A stretch of 64,000 nucleotides of DNA from an uncultured Pseudomonadota bacterium (lineage in GTDB: Bacteria > Pseudomonadota > Alphaproteobacteria > RF32 > CAG-239). Positions 3,420-44,236 of this stretch are shown piece by piece (the stretch's first letter is position 1; each line of letters opens with the position of its first letter). Where the stretch lies: assembly GCA_902763905.1 (NCBI GenBank), contig CACWUA010000005.1, positions 7,373 through 71,372 of the forward strand, given 5' to 3'. Both the position numbers and the translations under genes were made by a program. The notes below the pieces were generated by a model. That model was not told the DNA's origin and did not search any database. It saw nothing but the letters and a program-made list of their open reading frames with translations.

Positions 3420-3478
3420 GTGTGATTTTTCTTAATTTTTGACAAAAAATAGTGTAAAAAGAAAATAAAGGAATAAAA

Positions 3479-5998
3479 ATGGCAGATGACGGATTAAATA
3501 TTGATTTTGGTGAGATGTATGCTTTTGACATGGTGGATGGCGATAAAACTGTCGGCCAGATGAATGTCAGCGTGCATAAACAAAAAACGTCTTCTCGCGG
3601 CGAAAACCAGATTTATCCGAATTCATGGTTTATCGGCGATACCGAGAAATTAAAGCCTGTTTTGGAAATTGATGGTTTCGGTACAGTCGGAAATCAAGGT
3701 AAAGGCTATGGCCGTGCCGGTTTGCAACGTGCTTATGAAATGAGCCTTGAAAAAGGTTGCGATGGTCGCGTTGAAGTTCATGCTACTTGGGAAGCCGGTA
3801 AGTTTTACGAACATTGCGGATTTGTCGGCAAAAATGGCAAAAAAAATGGAAAGCCTGGAATTAAATATTTTGAGCCTACAGAGAAAAATGTTGCGGATTT
3901 GTATGAAGGCGGCAAACGTGAAAATTTGCGTTTGCAAACAGCTAAACCGATGGATTTTGGCGATATTGATATAGATGCTTTGTTGGCTGAAGCCGAAGTA
4001 AAACAACCGATAAAACGTTTGCGTGATGTAGAACAAATCTTTTTGGCAGGAAATACGCAGGTTGAAAGCAAAGCCGATTTAGCCAAGATTGTTGAAGAAC
4101 CGTGTTTAGCAGTTTGTGAGAATTTATACGATAAAAATATCTTAACTTATTGGAGTTCTGCCAATAAAAATGCGCCGGACAGAGCGTATGTGCTGATTCG
4201 CTATGAAAGCCTTGATGACAACAACAAAAAAATTGCCGATGATATGATTGCTAAGGGTATTTTGAGTGATGAACCGCGTTATCAATTTGATTCATTTAAT
4301 ACCGCGCAAGAATACGGCAAAGCCTTATATTTGGGGATAGATACCAATCCCGATATGGAGGTAGCGGAAATCTCGGAAAAATTATGCAAGATTGCCGCTG
4401 AATTTGCACCGCAAGACATAAAATACAATGTTTATACGCCGCAGTATTTGTTGGAAAATTATTTTGCAAGCGGCGGCAATAAATCGTTTGCGTTTCCAAG
4501 TCTCAAAACAGCAATTTGTGGAGAAAAAGATGAAGATATTAAACCGGATCGAGAAGCGATATTAACATCAATTAAAATTATGATGAAATACAAACAAGAA
4601 ACCGGTCTTTCTGCCGATGATATGCGTGAGGTTGCCGCTAAAATCGGTTGGCTTTATAATGAAGAAAACGGTTGTTTATATAAAGATAAAGAAACACTTC
4701 GTCGACACAATGAATATGTTAAACAAGAGGAACACATGGTTAGCTTCAAGGATATAGTTAATTTTAAGTATGGTGAACAAGAAGTTGATAAAGATATCAG
4801 AGAGTTGTTGGCAACTGACGAGTTTCATCCGGCTTACGCCGATGTGGTGCGAGAATTTTTAGCTCCGGAAATTGCAAATTGTAAAAAGTCCGTTGATGAT
4901 GACACTCACCATCTGCAAGTGCATATTCACGGCCCGATGTGCGAAGATGCTTTAACCCGCACACCTCAAGAACTTAATCCGGAATTGGATTGGTTAGGCT
5001 TTAATGAAGAAAAACGTAAATTCTGGTACGATTATTTCGTGCATCCGAAATTCGGTCGGCAAAAAACACCTCCTTTATCTATCTTGCAAAACAACGATAA
5101 AAAATTGATTATGTATCCGTTTGGCTTATCGAGAGACGCTTTTTATAGCGTATATACCGAAATTCATGAGCTTATGCACGGAATTCAGGCAAAATATGAT
5201 GATGCCCAAAAGGAAGACGAATATCTGAAAGAGCATTATGAGCTTTTGTATCAGGGCAAATCACGAGATGAGGCTAAGGAAATTCAGGCGGCCAAAAATC
5301 CGCACTTAAAAGAAGATACGCATTACGGTCGGTGCATCAGAGAAATGCAAGCGAATTCGGCGGCAACGACATATATGATGCTTAAAGCGGTGGAAACCGG
5401 CGATAAAGATTTGATAGCAAAAGTTGAACAACGTCTGCTTAATGAATCGGCTTCTATGTCCGGTGCTTTGATGAATGAACGTTTGGGTTTGGCATATTTT
5501 GAATATCCGGCAACAAAGAAGATTATTAAGGAAGTAAAACAAGGTAAATGTGCGCATTTATTAAACGAAAACGGCTTATTAAACTGGTCGGCGCTTTACA
5601 AATATACCAAAGATAAAGTTGCAGAGATGGGATATAGCAAAGAAGACATGAATGAATCACTTAATACTGCTAAAATGCTGAAAGAAATCAAAGCTAAGCA
5701 TCCGGACAGCAAAGAAGAATTTTTATCTGCCGTAGAAAAAGAAGCCATGAATGTGCCGCATCCGCACAATAAAATATTTAGCCAATTTGTTGAGGCTGAG
5801 CGTGACTATACACCGGATTCTTCACAGAATTTGCATCGATTTTATGATTATTTAGGCGTTAAAGACAATCGCGAGACGTTGCTTGAAAAAGCCGACAGCA
5901 AAAATGTGCCGCACATTGAGGAATACCGTCAAATATACACTAAGAACAAAGTATTGCAACAAAAAATACAAACGCAGCTTATAAACAAAGTTCGTTAA
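3479..5998 (+). CDS. large multidomain protein (839 aa): N-terminal GNAT-like acetyltransferase fold, C-terminal region with HExxH motif
   Basis: RBS AAAGGAA before ATG 3479. GNAT motif-A-like NQGKGYGRAGLQRAY...FYEHCGF lies in the first ~150 aa. HELMH (EIHELMHGIQ) at about residue 560. No signal peptide. Confidence 0.6.
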   Translation: MADDGLNIDFGEMYAFDMVDGDKTVGQMNVSVHKQKTSSRGENQIYPNSWFIGDTEKLKPVLEIDGFGTVGNQGKGYGRAGLQRAYEMSLEKGCDGRVEVHATWEAGKFYEHCGFVGKNGKKNGKPGIKYFEPTEKNVADLYEGGKRENLRLQTAKPMDFGDIDIDALLAEAEVKQPIKRLRDVEQIFLAGNTQVESKADLAKIVEEPCLAVCENLYDKNILTYWSSANKNAPDRAYVLIRYESLDDNNKKIADDMIAKGILSDEPRYQFDSFNTAQEYGKALYLGIDTNPDMEVAEISEKLCKIAAEFAPQDIKYNVYTPQYLLENYFASGGNKSFAFPSLKTAICGEKDEDIKPDREAILTSIKIMMKYKQETGLSADDMREVAAKIGWLYNEENGCLYKDKETLRRHNEYVKQEEHMVSFKDIVNFKYGEQEVDKDIRELLATDEFHPAYADVVREFLAPEIANCKKSVDDDTHHLQVHIHGPMCEDALTRTPQELNPELDWLGFNEEKRKFWYDYFVHPKFGRQKTPPLSILQNNDKKLIMYPFGLSRDAFYSVYTEIHELMHGIQAKYDDAQKEDEYLKEHYELLYQGKSRDEAKEIQAAKNPHLKEDTHYGRCIREMQANSAATTYMMLKAVETGDKDLIAKVEQRLLNESASMSGALMNERLGLAYFEYPATKKIIKEVKQGKCAHLLNENGLLNWSALYKYTKDKVAEMGYSKEDMNESLNTAKMLKEIKAKHPDSKEEFLSAVEKEAMNVPHPHNKIFSQFVEAERDYTPDSSQNLHRFYDYLGVKDNRETLLEKADSKNVPHIEEYRQIYTKNKVLQQKIQTQLINKVR

Positions 5999-39926: not shown

Positions 39927-39973
39927 AACACAATATATTGTTATTTAACTTTTAATTAAACTATATATAGTAG
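39927..39973 (+). promoter_or_regulatory. two tandem NrdR boxes upstream of nrdD
   Basis: ACACAATATATTGTTA (39927-39942, 14/16 to the consensus acaCwAtATaTwGtgt) and AAACTATATATAGTAG (39958-39973, 13/16). The starts are 31 nt apart, which is the usual NrdR-box phasing. Confidence 0.6.
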
Positions 39974-40015: not shown

Positions 40016-42115
40016 ATGGCCGAAGTGTACGAAATGAACACGAATAATATACACACCAACATTAAACACGTTACCAAACGTGACGGAACGCTGGCAGACT
40101 TTGACGGCAGCAAAATTTATAACGCTATTTTGAAAGCAGGCACAACCACCGGCGAGTTCGGCGAAGCTGATGCCTGGCTTTTGACCGCACAGGTTATGAA
40201 AGTTGCCAACTATAAATTTGCCGAATCGGTACCAACTATCGAACAAATTCAAGATATTGTCGAACAGGCACTGATTTCCTCCAACTATACCGCCACCGCC
40301 AAAGCTTATATTTTATATCGTGATCAGCGTACTCGCGCTCGTACCGACCATAAGGTTATGGTTGATGTGGAGAGTTCCATTAACGAATATTTGGAAAAAC
40401 TTGACTGGCGTGTTAATGCCAATGCCAATCAAGGATATTCTAACGGCGGCTTGATTTTGAACGTTTCCGGTAAGGTTACGGCTAACTACTGGCTGAGCCA
40501 CGTTTATCCGGCCGAAGTCGGTGAAGCCCATCGCAACGGCGATATTCACATTCACGATTTGGATATGCTTGCCGCATATTGTGCCGGTTGGTCTTTGAAA
40601 AACTTATTAAAAGAAGGTTTCAACGGTGTTCGCGGCAAAGCTGAGGCCAATCCGCCGAAACACTTGTCGGCCGCAACCGGTCAGATGGTAAACTTTATGG
40701 GTACACTGCAAAACGAATGGGCCGGTGCACAAGCATTTTCTTCGGTTGATACATATCTTGCTCCATACATCAGAAAAGATAACCTTTCGTATGAAGAAGT
40801 CAAACAATGCATTCAAGAATTAATCTACAATTTGAACGTACCGTCTCGTTGGGGTTCACAAACGCCGTTTACCAACTTTACGTTTGACTGGGTATGTCCG
40901 GAAGATTTGCGTGACCAACACCCGTATATCGGCGGCCATATTGCCGGCCACGACGAAAACTTTATGCCGATTATCGAAGGTCAGGAAGAAATGCCGTTCA
41001 CTTACGGTGATTTGCAAAAAGAAATGGATATGATTAACCGCGCCTATATTGAAGTAATGATGGAAGGCGACGTGATGGATCGTCCGTTTACTTTCCCGAT
41101 TCCGACTTATAACATGACTCCGGATTTTCCGTGGGATGACGAAAAATCACAACTGTTGTTTGAAATGACTGCCAAATACGGTATGCCTTATTTCCAAAAC
41201 TTCATCAATTCGGTATTGAAACCGGGGCAGATTCGCTCGATGTGCTGCCGCTTGCAACTCGACTTACGTGAACTTTTGGCACGTGGTAACGGCTTATTCG
41301 GTTCGGCGGAGCAAACAGGTTCCATCGGCGTTGTAACTTTCAACTGCGCACGTTTGGGTTATGTATACAAAGGCAACGAAGCCGGATTATTCGGTCGCGT
41401 AGACGAGCTTTTGAATATTGCCCGCACCTCACTTGAGATTAAGCGCAAAACCATTCAGCGCCTGATTGATAACGGTTTGTATCCGTACACCAAGCGCTAT
41501 TTGGGTACACTGCGCAATCACTTCTCCACCATCGGTGTTAACGGCATCAACGAGATGATTCGCAACTTCACCAACGACGAGCACCATATTGCCGACGAAT
41601 GGGGTAAGGCTTTTGCCGAAAAATTCTTGGATTATATTCGTGCCAAACTGATTAAAATTCAAGAAGAAACCGGCCATATGTATAACCTCGAAGCCACTCC
41701 GGCCGAAAGTGCCACCTATCGTTTTGCGCGTGAAGATAAAAAACGTTTCCCTGGCATCATTCAAGCCGGCACCGAAGAGAATCCGTATTATACCAACTCT
41801 TCGCAGTTACCGGTGGGCTATACCGATGATCCGTTTGAAGCACTTGATTTGCAAGCAACTCTGCAATCCAAATACACCGGCGGCACCGTATTGCACCTCT
41901 ATATGAGCCAAAGAATTTCTTCGGCAAAGGTTTGCGGCGAACTGATTAAAAAGGTTCTGACCAATTACCGCTTGCCGTATATTACCATAACTCCGACTTT
42001 CTCGATTTGTCCGAAACACGGCTATCTGGCCGGCGAGCACAAATTCTGCCCGAAATGCGATGAAGAAAAGAAAGCCGCCAAGATGAAAGCTTTTAAGGCA
42101 AGTAACGTTGCTTAA
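40016..42115 (+). CDS. nrdD: anaerobic ribonucleoside-triphosphate reductase, large polypeptide lacking the glycyl-radical motif
   Basis: RBS GGGAGA. ATP-cone (VTKRDGTLADFDGSKIYNAI), active-site SMCCRLQL, and a C-terminal Zn ribbon ICPKHG...FCPKCD. The ORF stops right after the ribbon, before the expected RV.GY motif. Confidence 0.85.
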   Translation: MAEVYEMNTNNIHTNIKHVTKRDGTLADFDGSKIYNAILKAGTTTGEFGEADAWLLTAQVMKVANYKFAESVPTIEQIQDIVEQALISSNYTATAKAYILYRDQRTRARTDHKVMVDVESSINEYLEKLDWRVNANANQGYSNGGLILNVSGKVTANYWLSHVYPAEVGEAHRNGDIHIHDLDMLAAYCAGWSLKNLLKEGFNGVRGKAEANPPKHLSAATGQMVNFMGTLQNEWAGAQAFSSVDTYLAPYIRKDNLSYEEVKQCIQELIYNLNVPSRWGSQTPFTNFTFDWVCPEDLRDQHPYIGGHIAGHDENFMPIIEGQEEMPFTYGDLQKEMDMINRAYIEVMMEGDVMDRPFTFPIPTYNMTPDFPWDDEKSQLLFEMTAKYGMPYFQNFINSVLKPGQIRSMCCRLQLDLRELLARGNGLFGSAEQTGSIGVVTFNCARLGYVYKGNEAGLFGRVDELLNIARTSLEIKRKTIQRLIDNGLYPYTKRYLGTLRNHFSTIGVNGINEMIRNFTNDEHHIADEWGKAFAEKFLDYIRAKLIKIQEETGHMYNLEATPAESATYRFAREDKKRFPGIIQAGTEENPYYTNSSQLPVGYTDDPFEALDLQATLQSKYTGGTVLHLYMSQRISSAKVCGELIKKVLTNYRLPYITITPTFSICPKHGYLAGEHKFCPKCDEEKKAAKMKAFKASNVA

Positions 42116-42171
42116 AAAAGCGAGAAAAACAGAATAACAAACACTTTAACCAAACACTTAGGAGAATATAA

Positions 42172-42390
42172 ATGACAAACACCATTAATTTTGAAGACAT
42201 TGCTTTAACCGACGCCGAGAGACAACCTTGTGAAATTTGGACTCGTGTGATGGGTTATCACCGTCCGGTTTCCGAATTCAACAAGGGTAAAAAATCGGAA
42301 TACTATTCTCGTAAGTGTTTTGTGGAAGAAAAAGCGGTTATGCACTTGAGTCTGGAAGGCTCTTGCGGTTGCCAAATGGCTGCCGAATAA
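42172..42390 (+). CDS. stand-alone NrdD glycyl-radical domain protein (72 aa)
   Basis: Own RBS TAGGAGA 7 nt before the ATG. EIWTRVMGYHRPVSEFNKGKKSEYYSRKCF matches the NrdD C-terminal glycyl-radical signature (R-V-x-G-Y...N-x-G-K...E...R). Confidence 0.7.
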   Translation: MTNTINFEDIALTDAERQPCEIWTRVMGYHRPVSEFNKGKKSEYYSRKCFVEEKAVMHLSLEGSCGCQMAAE

Positions 42391-42410
42391 TTTCCGTTTC
42401 GGTTTATGAC

Positions 42411-42442
42411 AAAGGGAGGATTGCTATAATTCTCCCTTTTTT
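42411..42442 (+). terminator. hairpin plus T-run between the glycyl-radical gene and nrdG (terminator/attenuator)
   Basis: Stem AAAGGGAG/CTCCCTTT with a 13-nt loop, followed by TTT. nrdG starts 15 nt later. Confidence 0.5.
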
Positions 42443-42456
42443 GAAAGGATAAGCAA

Positions 42457-43164
42457 ATGGAAAAAGATTTAATCAGAATCGGTGATATTGAAAAGTTCAG
42501 CCTTGTAGACTTTCCTTCCAAGATTGCAGCCGTGGTGTTTATGCAGGGCTGTCCGTGGCGTTGTCCGTTTTGCTACAACCAATCGCTGCAGAACCCTACC
42601 GGCGAAACCGATGCCAAATGGGGACATTTGTTACATCTGCTGGAACATCGCAAGGGAATGATTGACGCCGTGGTATTTTCCGGCGGCGAGCCGCTGTTGC
42701 AAAACAATTTGCCGCAAGCCATGGATGAAGTAAAGGCTATGGGATTTGAAATCGGCCTGCACACCGGCGGTTATAATCCGGAAGCGTTTGCCAAGGTTGT
42801 TGATAAAGTAAATTGGGTGGGATTCGATATCAAGGCTCCGCTTAATGCCGAACATTATAAACGCGCCACCGGCGGAGTCGGCGATGTTGCAAAAATCAAG
42901 CAAAGCCTCGTTATGCTGATTAAAAGCGGCAAACACTTTGAATGCCGTACCACTTGTGACCCGCGGCTTTTGGATATTACCGATATTTACACGATTGCCG
43001 ATGAATTGGCGGCATTGGGTGTCAAAGAATATTATATTCAGAAATATCGCCCGATTCCGAGTGATACAACCACGCAGGAAAGTGATTGCGACAAGTTTTT
43101 TAAGGACGAAAAATTGCTCGCTTATCTGCACTCTAAATTTGCAACTTTTGATGCCAGAAAATAA
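42457..43164 (+). CDS. nrdG: anaerobic ribonucleotide reductase activating protein (radical SAM)
   Basis: CPWRCPFCYN CxxxCxxC cluster and GGEPLL motif. Adjacent to nrdD. Confidence 0.85.
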   Translation: MEKDLIRIGDIEKFSLVDFPSKIAAVVFMQGCPWRCPFCYNQSLQNPTGETDAKWGHLLHLLEHRKGMIDAVVFSGGEPLLQNNLPQAMDEVKAMGFEIGLHTGGYNPEAFAKVVDKVNWVGFDIKAPLNAEHYKRATGGVGDVAKIKQSLVMLIKSGKHFECRTTCDPRLLDITDIYTIADELAALGVKEYYIQKYRPIPSDTTTQESDCDKFFKDEKLLAYLHSKFATFDARK

Positions 43165-43169
43165 AATAT

Positions 43170-43721
43170 ATGCCGAGTTTAGCCGAAATATTTGCGATTT
43201 TTTTTAAGATAGGCCTGCTCACTTTTGGCGGCGGCGGTGTGATGATTGCATGGATTCAGGAAGAATTGGTGCACAAAAAGAAATGGCTGAGTGACACCGA
43301 TTTTCTTGATCTGTACGCGATTGCTCAATGCACACCTGGGATTATTGCCATCAACGTTGCCACTATGGTCGGTTATGCCGTGCACAAAAAGGCCGGAGCG
43401 GCAGTTGCCACCGTTGCGGTCATCTTGCCGTCAATTATCGTTATCTCATTGCTGGCCTCAGTGTTGCCGAATATTACGGAAAATGAAATAGTCAAACATG
43501 CTTTCAATGGAATCAGAGCTGCGGTTGTTGCCATCATCACCAATGTTGCGGTCAATATGTTGCTTAACAATGTAAAAGACATGGTTGGTAAAACTATATT
43601 TGCCTTGAGTTTTTTGCTGTTGCTGCTGTTTGCTCTGTCACCGGTTGTTATGGTTATTTTCGGCTGTGTTGCCGGTTTGTCTTCGCAAAAATTGTTTTTC
43701 CGTAAGAGGGAGAAAACATGA
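43170..43721 (+). CDS. chrA: chromate transporter family protein (short ChrA, half 1)
   Basis: FFKIGLLTFGGGGVMIAWIQEELV...AQCTPGIIAIN is typical of the CHR family. Confidence 0.8.
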   Translation: MPSLAEIFAIFFKIGLLTFGGGGVMIAWIQEELVHKKKWLSDTDFLDLYAIAQCTPGIIAINVATMVGYAVHKKAGAAVATVAVILPSIIVISLLASVLPNITENEIVKHAFNGIRAAVVAIITNVAVNMLLNNVKDMVGKTIFALSFLLLLLFALSPVVMVIFGCVAGLSSQKLFFRKREKT

Positions 43722-44236
43722 TATACTGGCGATTGTTTTATGAATTTTTGACCATTGGCTTGGTGGCTATCGGCGGCGGCTTGGTAACCATACCGTTTTT
43801 ATCCGAATTGAGTAATAAATACGGTTGGTATTCTTTAGATGAACTGACCGATATGATTGCCGTTTCGGAAATAACCCCCGGTACCATCGGTATAAATATG
43901 GCAACTTTTGCCGGCTTTAAAACCTGCGGATTCTGGGGCGGAATGATTGCCACCTCAGGTTTAGCCTTACCGGCATTTTTAATTTTGCTGTTTTTCAGCA
44001 AATTCATCTTTAAATACAAAGAAAATCAGCTGTTTCAGAGTGTTTTATTTGGCATACGACCGGCAGCAATTGCCCTGATTTTATATGCAGGATGGGTAAT
44101 TGCCAAATTGTCGCTGACCGAGTGGAAAACACAGCTTTTATCGCTTATTCTTTTGGTTATAAGCTTTATAATAAAAAAATCGCCGATTTTTTATATTATT
44201 GCCGGCGCAATAACAGGAGTGGTTTTCGGTTTATAA
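43718..44236 (+). CDS. chrA: chromate transporter family protein (short ChrA, half 2)
   Basis: FLTIGLVAIGGGLVTIPFL...SEITPGTIGINMA. 4-nt overlap with half 1. Confidence 0.8.
   Translation: MIYWRLFYEFLTIGLVAIGGGLVTIPFLSELSNKYGWYSLDELTDMIAVSEITPGTIGINMATFAGFKTCGFWGGMIATSGLALPAFLILLFFSKFIFKYKENQLFQSVLFGIRPAAIALILYAGWVIAKLSLTEWKTQLLSLILLVISFIIKKSPIFYIIAGAITGVVFGL

Follow-up and report, generated by a model that had tools for sequence, protein, structure and literature searches.

A predicted two-chain class III ribonucleotide reductase with its glycyl-radical segment encoded by a separate small gene

The window analyzed here is a stretch of 64,000 nucleotides (nt) from contig CACWUA010000005.1 of assembly GCA_902763905.1, which belongs to an uncultured alphaproteobacterium of the lineage CAG-239, a gut or rumen bacterium. 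Between positions 40016 and 43164 of the window lie three co-directional genes: nrdD, which encodes the large chain of an anaerobic (class III) ribonucleotide reductase; a small gene, which encodes a glycyl-radical segment; and nrdG, the cognate radical S-adenosylmethionine (radical-SAM) activase, which thus sits in the immediate neighborhood of nrdD. The features of the locus are as follows, with lengths of proteins in amino acids (aa).

39928-39943: NrdR box 1 in the nrdD leader, ACACAATATATTGTTA, 14/16 to consensus
39958-39973: NrdR box 2 in the nrdD leader, AAACTATATATAGTAG, 13/16, 30 nt after box 1
40016-42115, + strand: nrdD large chain, 699 aa, with ATP-cone, catalytic barrel, zinc ribbon and basic tail, and without a glycyl-radical loop
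40064-40333, + strand: ATP-cone, residues 17-106 (PF03477, E = 1.1e-21)
41240-41251, + strand: finger-loop motif MCCR, residues 409-412, double-cysteine type, read from the sequence
42008-42061, + strand: zinc ribbon CPKHGY...CPKC, residues 665-682, read from the sequence and predicted to bind metal
42062-42112, + strand: basic 17-residue tail EEKKAAKMKAFKASNVA, computed net charge +3, followed by a TAA stop
42116-42171, + strand: spacer of 56 nt, with an AGGAGA ribosome-binding site at 42160-42165, six bases before the ATG
42172-42390, + strand: small glycyl-radical chain, 72 aa (PF13597 positions 530-562, 31.3 bits, cut-off 26.2)
42253-42255, + strand: codon of the TRVMGY glycine, Gly28, which is predicted to bear the radical and is an invariant alignment column
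42364-42387, + strand: C-terminal CGC...AAE tail of the small chain, past the end of the canonical NrdD model
42411-42442, + strand: terminator-like hairpin and T-run between the small gene and nrdG, with a 13-bp stem and then a U-run
42457-43164, + strand: nrdG, radical-SAM activase, 235 aa (TIGR02495 NrdG2, 191.4 bits, cut-off 131.15)

The two chains divide between them what is a single polypeptide in one-piece NrdD. Against NF006126, the model for anaerobic ribonucleoside-triphosphate reductase of the PRK08270 type, the large chain scored 1113.6 bits (cut-off 548) over model positions 3-653 of 684, and the small chain matched positions 649-682. The Pfam NRDD model (PF13597) gave the large chain 594 bits from position 2 to position 532 of 562, where the match ends, and no RVxGY glycyl-radical loop was found on the barrel polypeptide. 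When both proteins were aligned with the NrdD of Thermotoga maritima (4COI), the large chain corresponded to residues 101-613 and the small chain to residues 614-646. These segments are contiguous, which makes the two proteins the two sides of one cut, and Gly28 of the small chain falls on the glycine of the T. maritima RIVGY motif. With the NrdD of Prevotella copri as a reference for domain layout (PMC11226230), the cut lies inside the glycyl-radical domain, leaving the ribbon on the body of the enzyme and placing the glycine loop and the C-terminal tail on the small protein. The Cx2H...Cx2C pattern of the ribbon is the same in one-piece relatives, and the finger loop falls into one of the two motif classes (MGCR or MCCR) set out in PMC9669993. 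A preliminary description, made from the letters of the window, had proposed a 699-residue NrdD with ATP-cone, CCR motif, and zinc ribbon that stops 17 codons past the ribbon and, beyond a spacer of 56 nt that contains a separate ribosome-binding site, a 72-residue frame supplying the missing glycyl-radical segment. Profile matches, the T. maritima alignment, and reading of the sequence agree with it on each of these points. The hairpin that it placed before nrdG also holds up as a fold (-18.5 kcal/mol, z = -2.35), though it is missing from the list produced by a consensus terminator scan.

The same division is found well beyond this window. The small protein occupies a short open frame of 72-114 aa in all 24 of the other genus genomes searched, and the tail and stop of the large chain are conserved across the genus. 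We compared 18 operon loci of seven genera: the end of the large chain is conserved in them (for example, DEEKKAAKMKAFKASNVA), the spacer that follows it measures 27 to 66 nt and is not conserved in sequence, the small gene takes any of the three relative frames, and a ribosome-binding site is retained. Pairwise comparison of the operon small gene gave a ratio of nonsynonymous to synonymous substitution (dN/dS) of 0.05 at a median dS of approximately 1.3. Scanning species representatives, with one genome per species, yielded at least 554 stretches that encode a relative. Each of the best 80 loci, which we examined, had the two-gene layout (80/80), with small frames of 68-140 aa; the large gene was directly upstream in 68 of the 80, and nrdG was downstream in 67 of those 68. 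The order of large chain, small chain, and nrdG was also found in six other genera. Among 401 genomes drawn from the class, 47 carried the glycyl-radical motif, 32 of them in a short frame (approximately 19 families, mostly with small genomes) and 15 in frames of 331-879 aa that represent one-piece enzymes. Finally, 2085 small homologues were recovered from the protein database at E <= 0.001.

The split is not confined to uncultured organisms. The RefSeq record of megaplasmid pHG1 from Cupriavidus necator H16 lists the activase and two further genes, a "ribonucleoside triphosphate reductase" of 677 aa and, apart from it, an "nrdD" of 66 aa (H16_RS32675), and our reading of the open reading frames (ORFs) confirmed the split. 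ORF reading revealed the same layout in Cupriavidus metallidurans CH34 and Paracoccus denitrificans. A further 132 Ralstonia replicon records match the small protein, at the level of a sequence match rather than of ORF layout. On the basis of these surveys, the two-piece layout as read from genome sequences is widespread and includes laboratory denitrifiers. The CH34 genome paper (PMC2864759) states that nrdDG of pHG1 is needed for complete denitrification in H16 and that vitamin B12 counters its loss. This counts as second-hand in vivo evidence for a locus of the split type. On pHG1 (locus L139), the small gene (3447-3647) overlaps the annotated start of nrdG (3631-4350) by 17 nt, and the spacer after the large gene measures 142 nt, far longer than in the gut clade. 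Because C. necator H16 and P. denitrificans are genetically tractable and carry the split, the system can be studied without recourse to an uncultured organism.

Two other explanations for the layout can be weighed against this record. Metagenome-assembled drafts do contain sequencing and assembly errors, and the ORFs could also have become separated through a nonsense or frameshift mutation that recently struck a decaying nrdD. Yet the same arrangement of stop, spacer, and start recurs in independent assemblies of 24 of 24 genus genomes and at 80 of 80 other loci, which rules out sequencing error. The split is likewise present in finished genomes of cultured strains, and neither a dN/dS of 0.05 nor the standing of nrdD as the only reductase found in the genus would be expected of a decaying gene; an artifact or fresh mutation is scarcely conceivable. 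It is also very improbable that the ORFs are joined at expression, whether by frameshifting, readthrough, ribosomal bypass, RNA splicing, or protein trans-splicing. In favor of joining, the two pieces are adjacent here, and the nrdD of phage T4 carries a group I intron. Against it stand the variable, unconserved spacers, the occurrence of all three relative frames, the small gene's own ribosome-binding site and ATG, and the occurrence of stand-alone small genes on other contigs and on phage contigs with no large gene nearby. Moreover, the junction extensions of 17 and approximately 20 residues are far below the size of split-intein halves; no such halves (approximately 100 and 35 residues) were found at the junction, and the Pfam search returned no intein domain. 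The preliminary description had argued against a simple nonsense mutation and suggested surveying related genomes for the same split. That survey, together with purifying selection and the lack of another reductase in the genus, upholds its argument, and the comparative sequence evidence confirms a true split in which the glycyl-radical segment has a gene, predicted to be translated, of its own.

One-piece relatives in the same class shed light on how the split may have arisen, and they are of two kinds. In the short-linker kind, the ribbon leads straight to the loop (CPTCGKETNVWTRVMGY). The long-linker kind has a linker with an ERQxCEVW motif that is the same as in the small chains (...CEKCDDEIRAQKGLPMDAHLPDDQRQKCEVWTRVMGY...). 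A tree of 13 proteins, comprising large chains and one-piece enzymes, united the split and long-linker forms in one clade (100/100) apart from the short-linker forms, which indicates that the cut lies in a preexisting linker. Inside that clade, the 13-protein tree gives no firm branching order and fits one origin of the split as well as several. Cys20 in the small chain was a candidate for the fourth ligand of the zinc; it was dropped, as the short-linker one-piece relatives share the Cx2H...Cx2C pattern and have Thr at that position.

The split enzyme appears to carry the burden of deoxyribonucleotide synthesis in this genus without a second reductase. No class I or class II catalytic subunit (PF02867) was found in 41 genus genomes, including this one, 26 of which are of high quality, and this genome showed no R2 subunit; in these reductase searches, the hits expected of the control genomes were obtained. 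Accordingly, the split enzyme is the only ribonucleotide reductase found. Besides its single large nrdD, the genome holds two small genes and one copy of nrdG, the last being the single activase-like gene returned by tblastn with NrdG, a search that is weaker than a profile search.

The second small gene stands alone. It encodes 71 aa on the minus strand of contig 47 of the same genome (locus L013, 5688-5903), downstream of atpD and atpC and between two terminator-like hairpins, and it has its own promoter-like site and ribosome-binding site, so that it is predicted to form a monocistronic unit. Over a core of 48 residues, it differs from the operon copy at 1/48 residues and 25/144 nucleotides, a pattern that identifies the orphan as an old duplicate held by selection and not as the product of recent gene conversion. 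Among orphan orthologues, dN/dS was 0.10. Like the nrdD leader, the orphan leader carries two NrdR boxes, scoring 14/16 and 15/16 and lying 31 nt apart. A scan of the whole genome (1.53 Mb) found 35 NrdR-type sites scoring at least 13/16, and the only two pairs spaced at 29-33 nt were those in the nrdD and orphan leaders. The genome encodes NrdR (G000:C18:7220-7660), and the tandem operator of the orphan is retained in 20 of 21 genus genomes; of nine orphans belonging to other species, six have it too. Both small-chain transcription units are predicted to be repressed by NrdR. In other families, there are up to five small genes per genome, and the extra ones have neither a large gene nor nrdG nearby. 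The downstream neighbor of the orphan encodes an 825-aa protein (L013 3094-5571, contig 47, minus strand) with no Pfam match at E <= 0.001.

Stand-alone copies of the small gene are also found in viral sequences. A relative is encoded by 362 stretches in IMG/VR. The best 80 of these loci have a median small frame of 72 aa, and in 72 of the 80 neither a large nrdD nor nrdG lies within 4 kb. On two IMG/VR contigs of 40-46 kb, the small gene is located between the genes for an endolysin and an integrase, which is a usual position for cargo in temperate phages. The phage link rests on the IMG/VR contigs; deposited phage genomes (INPHARED) gave two weak hits only. Some phage copies are near-identical to the extra chromosomal copies of other families, and those copies are thus probably prophage cargo. 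The orphan of this genome sits on the chromosome and has been conserved throughout the genus. Carriage by temperate phages suggests a very cheap auxiliary gene that boosts the host's supply of deoxynucleoside triphosphates (dNTPs). On the temperate-phage contigs (L140 823-5397 and L148 665-5427), a reverse transcriptase (phrog_1423), which could be part of a diversity-generating retroelement, is encoded approximately 2 kb upstream of the small gene.

Taken together, these observations point to an obligate two-chain class III ribonucleotide reductase, a reading that we consider very probably correct. In the mechanism that we propose, the 699-residue chain, as a dimer, would form the catalytic body with its ATP-cone, its barrel with the MCCR finger loop, and its zinc ribbon, and the 72-residue chain would supply the C-terminal tail and the loop with the radical glycine (Gly28). 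The radical would be installed at Gly28 by NrdG, the product of the next gene, after which the loop of the small chain would insert into the barrel of the large chain beside Cys410/411 of the finger loop. A second, nearly identical small chain would come from the stand-alone gene on the other contig. The N-terminus of the small chain is acidic (computed net charge -3), and it may pair with the basic tail of the large chain. We infer the assembly of the two chains, the formation of the radical on the small chain, and the control by NrdR from the sequences. Some considerations weigh against this interpretation. The genome is a 95% complete draft, so that a missing reductase is not strictly excludable here; the result from 41 genomes argues that none was merely overlooked. 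Some host-associated bacteria live without any reductase, by salvage, and the status of sole reductase is thus no proof of activity by itself. A third point is neutral in our view: AlphaFold2 modeled the small chain alone with low confidence (predicted local distance difference test of 55.6 and predicted template modeling score of 0.25, from a 22-sequence alignment), which would fit a chain that folds on binding and does not show binding. Even so, the split enzyme should be functional.

If the two chains form one enzyme, what remains to be weighed is the meaning of their separation. It is very unlikely that the small proteins are GrcA-like spares of another glycyl-radical enzyme with the large chain not their partner. 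GrcA-type proteins are indeed small stand-alone radical domains (PMC8683613). Against such a role here, the family that the small chains match is NrdD (PF13597) rather than the glycyl-radical domain of the pyruvate formate-lyase type, their alignment to NrdD picks up at the very point where the large chain ends, the one activase-like gene found by tblastn is nrdG, and the orphan carries an NrdR operator. A more serious contender, to which we give an even chance, is that the split has no adaptive meaning: the linker was cut, the halves still assemble, and the extra copies provide gene dosage or a phage-borne boost of dNTPs, and oxygen damage is followed by neither exchange nor repair. The clade also contains one-piece relatives that have this long linker, which means that the cut needed little innovation, and split class II reductases work without a repair role, according to Crona 2015 as cited in PMC9669993. 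On the other side, a stand-alone, NrdR-controlled paralogue has been retained across the genus under purifying selection, and temperate phages repeatedly carry the small gene alone. Retention and phage carriage suggest that the small chain is in limiting supply, in keeping with turnover or exchange. The preliminary description had drawn a parallel with the GrcA/YfiD spare part. This parallel stands for the stand-alone copy and the phage copies, which are spare-like, and fails for the operon copy: with no radical loop on the large chain, the operon small protein is a regular subunit and not a spare. A replaceable cartridge of the GrcA kind is plausible, but we hold only tentatively, and as rather unlikely, the specific proposal that oxygen would cleave only the 8-kDa chain at Gly28 and that a fresh chain from the orphan or, in infected cells, from a phage copy would rearm the large chain. 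A neutral cut in the linker combined with dosage effects explains the same facts as exchange. If the cartridge proposal were true, it would extend spare-part systems, for the first time, to a glycyl-radical enzyme other than pyruvate formate-lyase and would offer strict users of class III reductase a route for surviving pulses of oxygen.

Several further features of the locus and its relatives deserve mention. The small chain ends in AAE in 116 of 120 small-chain homologues and at 79 of 80 genome loci in the gut and rumen alphaproteobacterial clade, and CxC or CC stands just before that end in 96 of the 120. The AAE end is absent from one-piece relatives and from the small chains of Cupriavidus and Paracoccus; in two other genera, it is the large chain that ends in a cysteine-bearing sequence, QACSC, instead. 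This end of the small chain could be a docking or redox tail. In two sister species (loci L002 and L003, at approximately 1740-2200), the gene for an HD-domain protein of 138 aa (PF01966, E = 1.7e-7) separates the small gene from nrdG. Right after nrdG in the window, at 43170-44236, are two adjacent half-size genes of the chromate-transporter family (PF02417, E = 1.7e-49 and 1.7e-41) with a 4-nt overlap.

In reviews and structural work, class III reductase is treated as a single chain with the radical on its C-terminal domain. Our literature search found no description of a split NrdD or of a separate NrdD radical domain, although subscription journals were mostly outside the search and a prior description is possible. 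The small genes are mostly annotated as "hypothetical" or with the full name of the enzyme, which is an annotation problem, and a large reductase phylogeny removed sequences of <400 residues (PMC9531940). New here are the stand-alone small gene with its own terminators and tandem NrdR operator, the phage-borne relatives, and the split in cultured strains. When the radical glycine is carried by an 8-kDa protein of its own, this alters the ways in which activation by NrdG, storage of the radical, and oxygen damage can be studied, in that the activase then acts on a small protein that can be separated. According to a 2026 review, formate-lyases alone among glycyl-radical enzymes have identified spare-part proteins (PMC13450708). 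The system described here makes the spare-part question for other glycyl-radical enzymes directly testable.

Compared with one-piece NrdD/NrdG systems, such as those of T. maritima (4COI/4U3E, of the NF006126 type), P. copri (8P23), and phage T4 (1H78), the split system has the same parts in the same order: ATP-cone, barrel, MCCR finger loop, zinc ribbon, and RVxGY loop, along with an adjacent NrdG2-type activase and an NrdR operator. It differs in that the glycine loop and C-terminal tail form a separately translated protein and a second small gene is present, with a basic tail added to the large chain and an acidic N-terminus and the AAE end added to the small one. Other reductases are known to be divided, among them the NrdA of phage Aeh1, which is split by a homing endonuclease gene. 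In the class II enzyme of Pseudomonas aeruginosa (cited in PMC9669993), NrdJa and NrdJb resemble our case in that a catalytic polypeptide comes from two adjacent genes whose products must assemble. Unlike in these two systems, which belong to other classes, the cut described here isolates the radical-bearing element itself, the spacer lacks a mobile element, and only the small piece exists in extra copies. By analogy only, the arrangement also recalls the alpha/beta pair of class I, where the stable radical is borne by a smaller subunit, distinct from the catalytic one to which it docks, although those proteins and their chemistry (a ferritin-like beta with a metallo-cofactor) are unrelated, without homology to ours. 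GrcA/YfiD of Escherichia coli and Y06I of phage T4 are autonomous glycyl-radical cofactors that serve as spare parts for pyruvate formate-lyase (PMC8683613, PMC13450708). With these proteins, the NrdD system has in common a small stand-alone radical-glycine protein (72 aa and 71 aa here), a stand-alone gene that has, in the case of the orphan, a predicted promoter of its own, and phage-borne versions. It departs from them in that the small chain is of the NrdD type (PF13597), with no match to PF01228, and in that its partner enzyme has no radical loop of its own.

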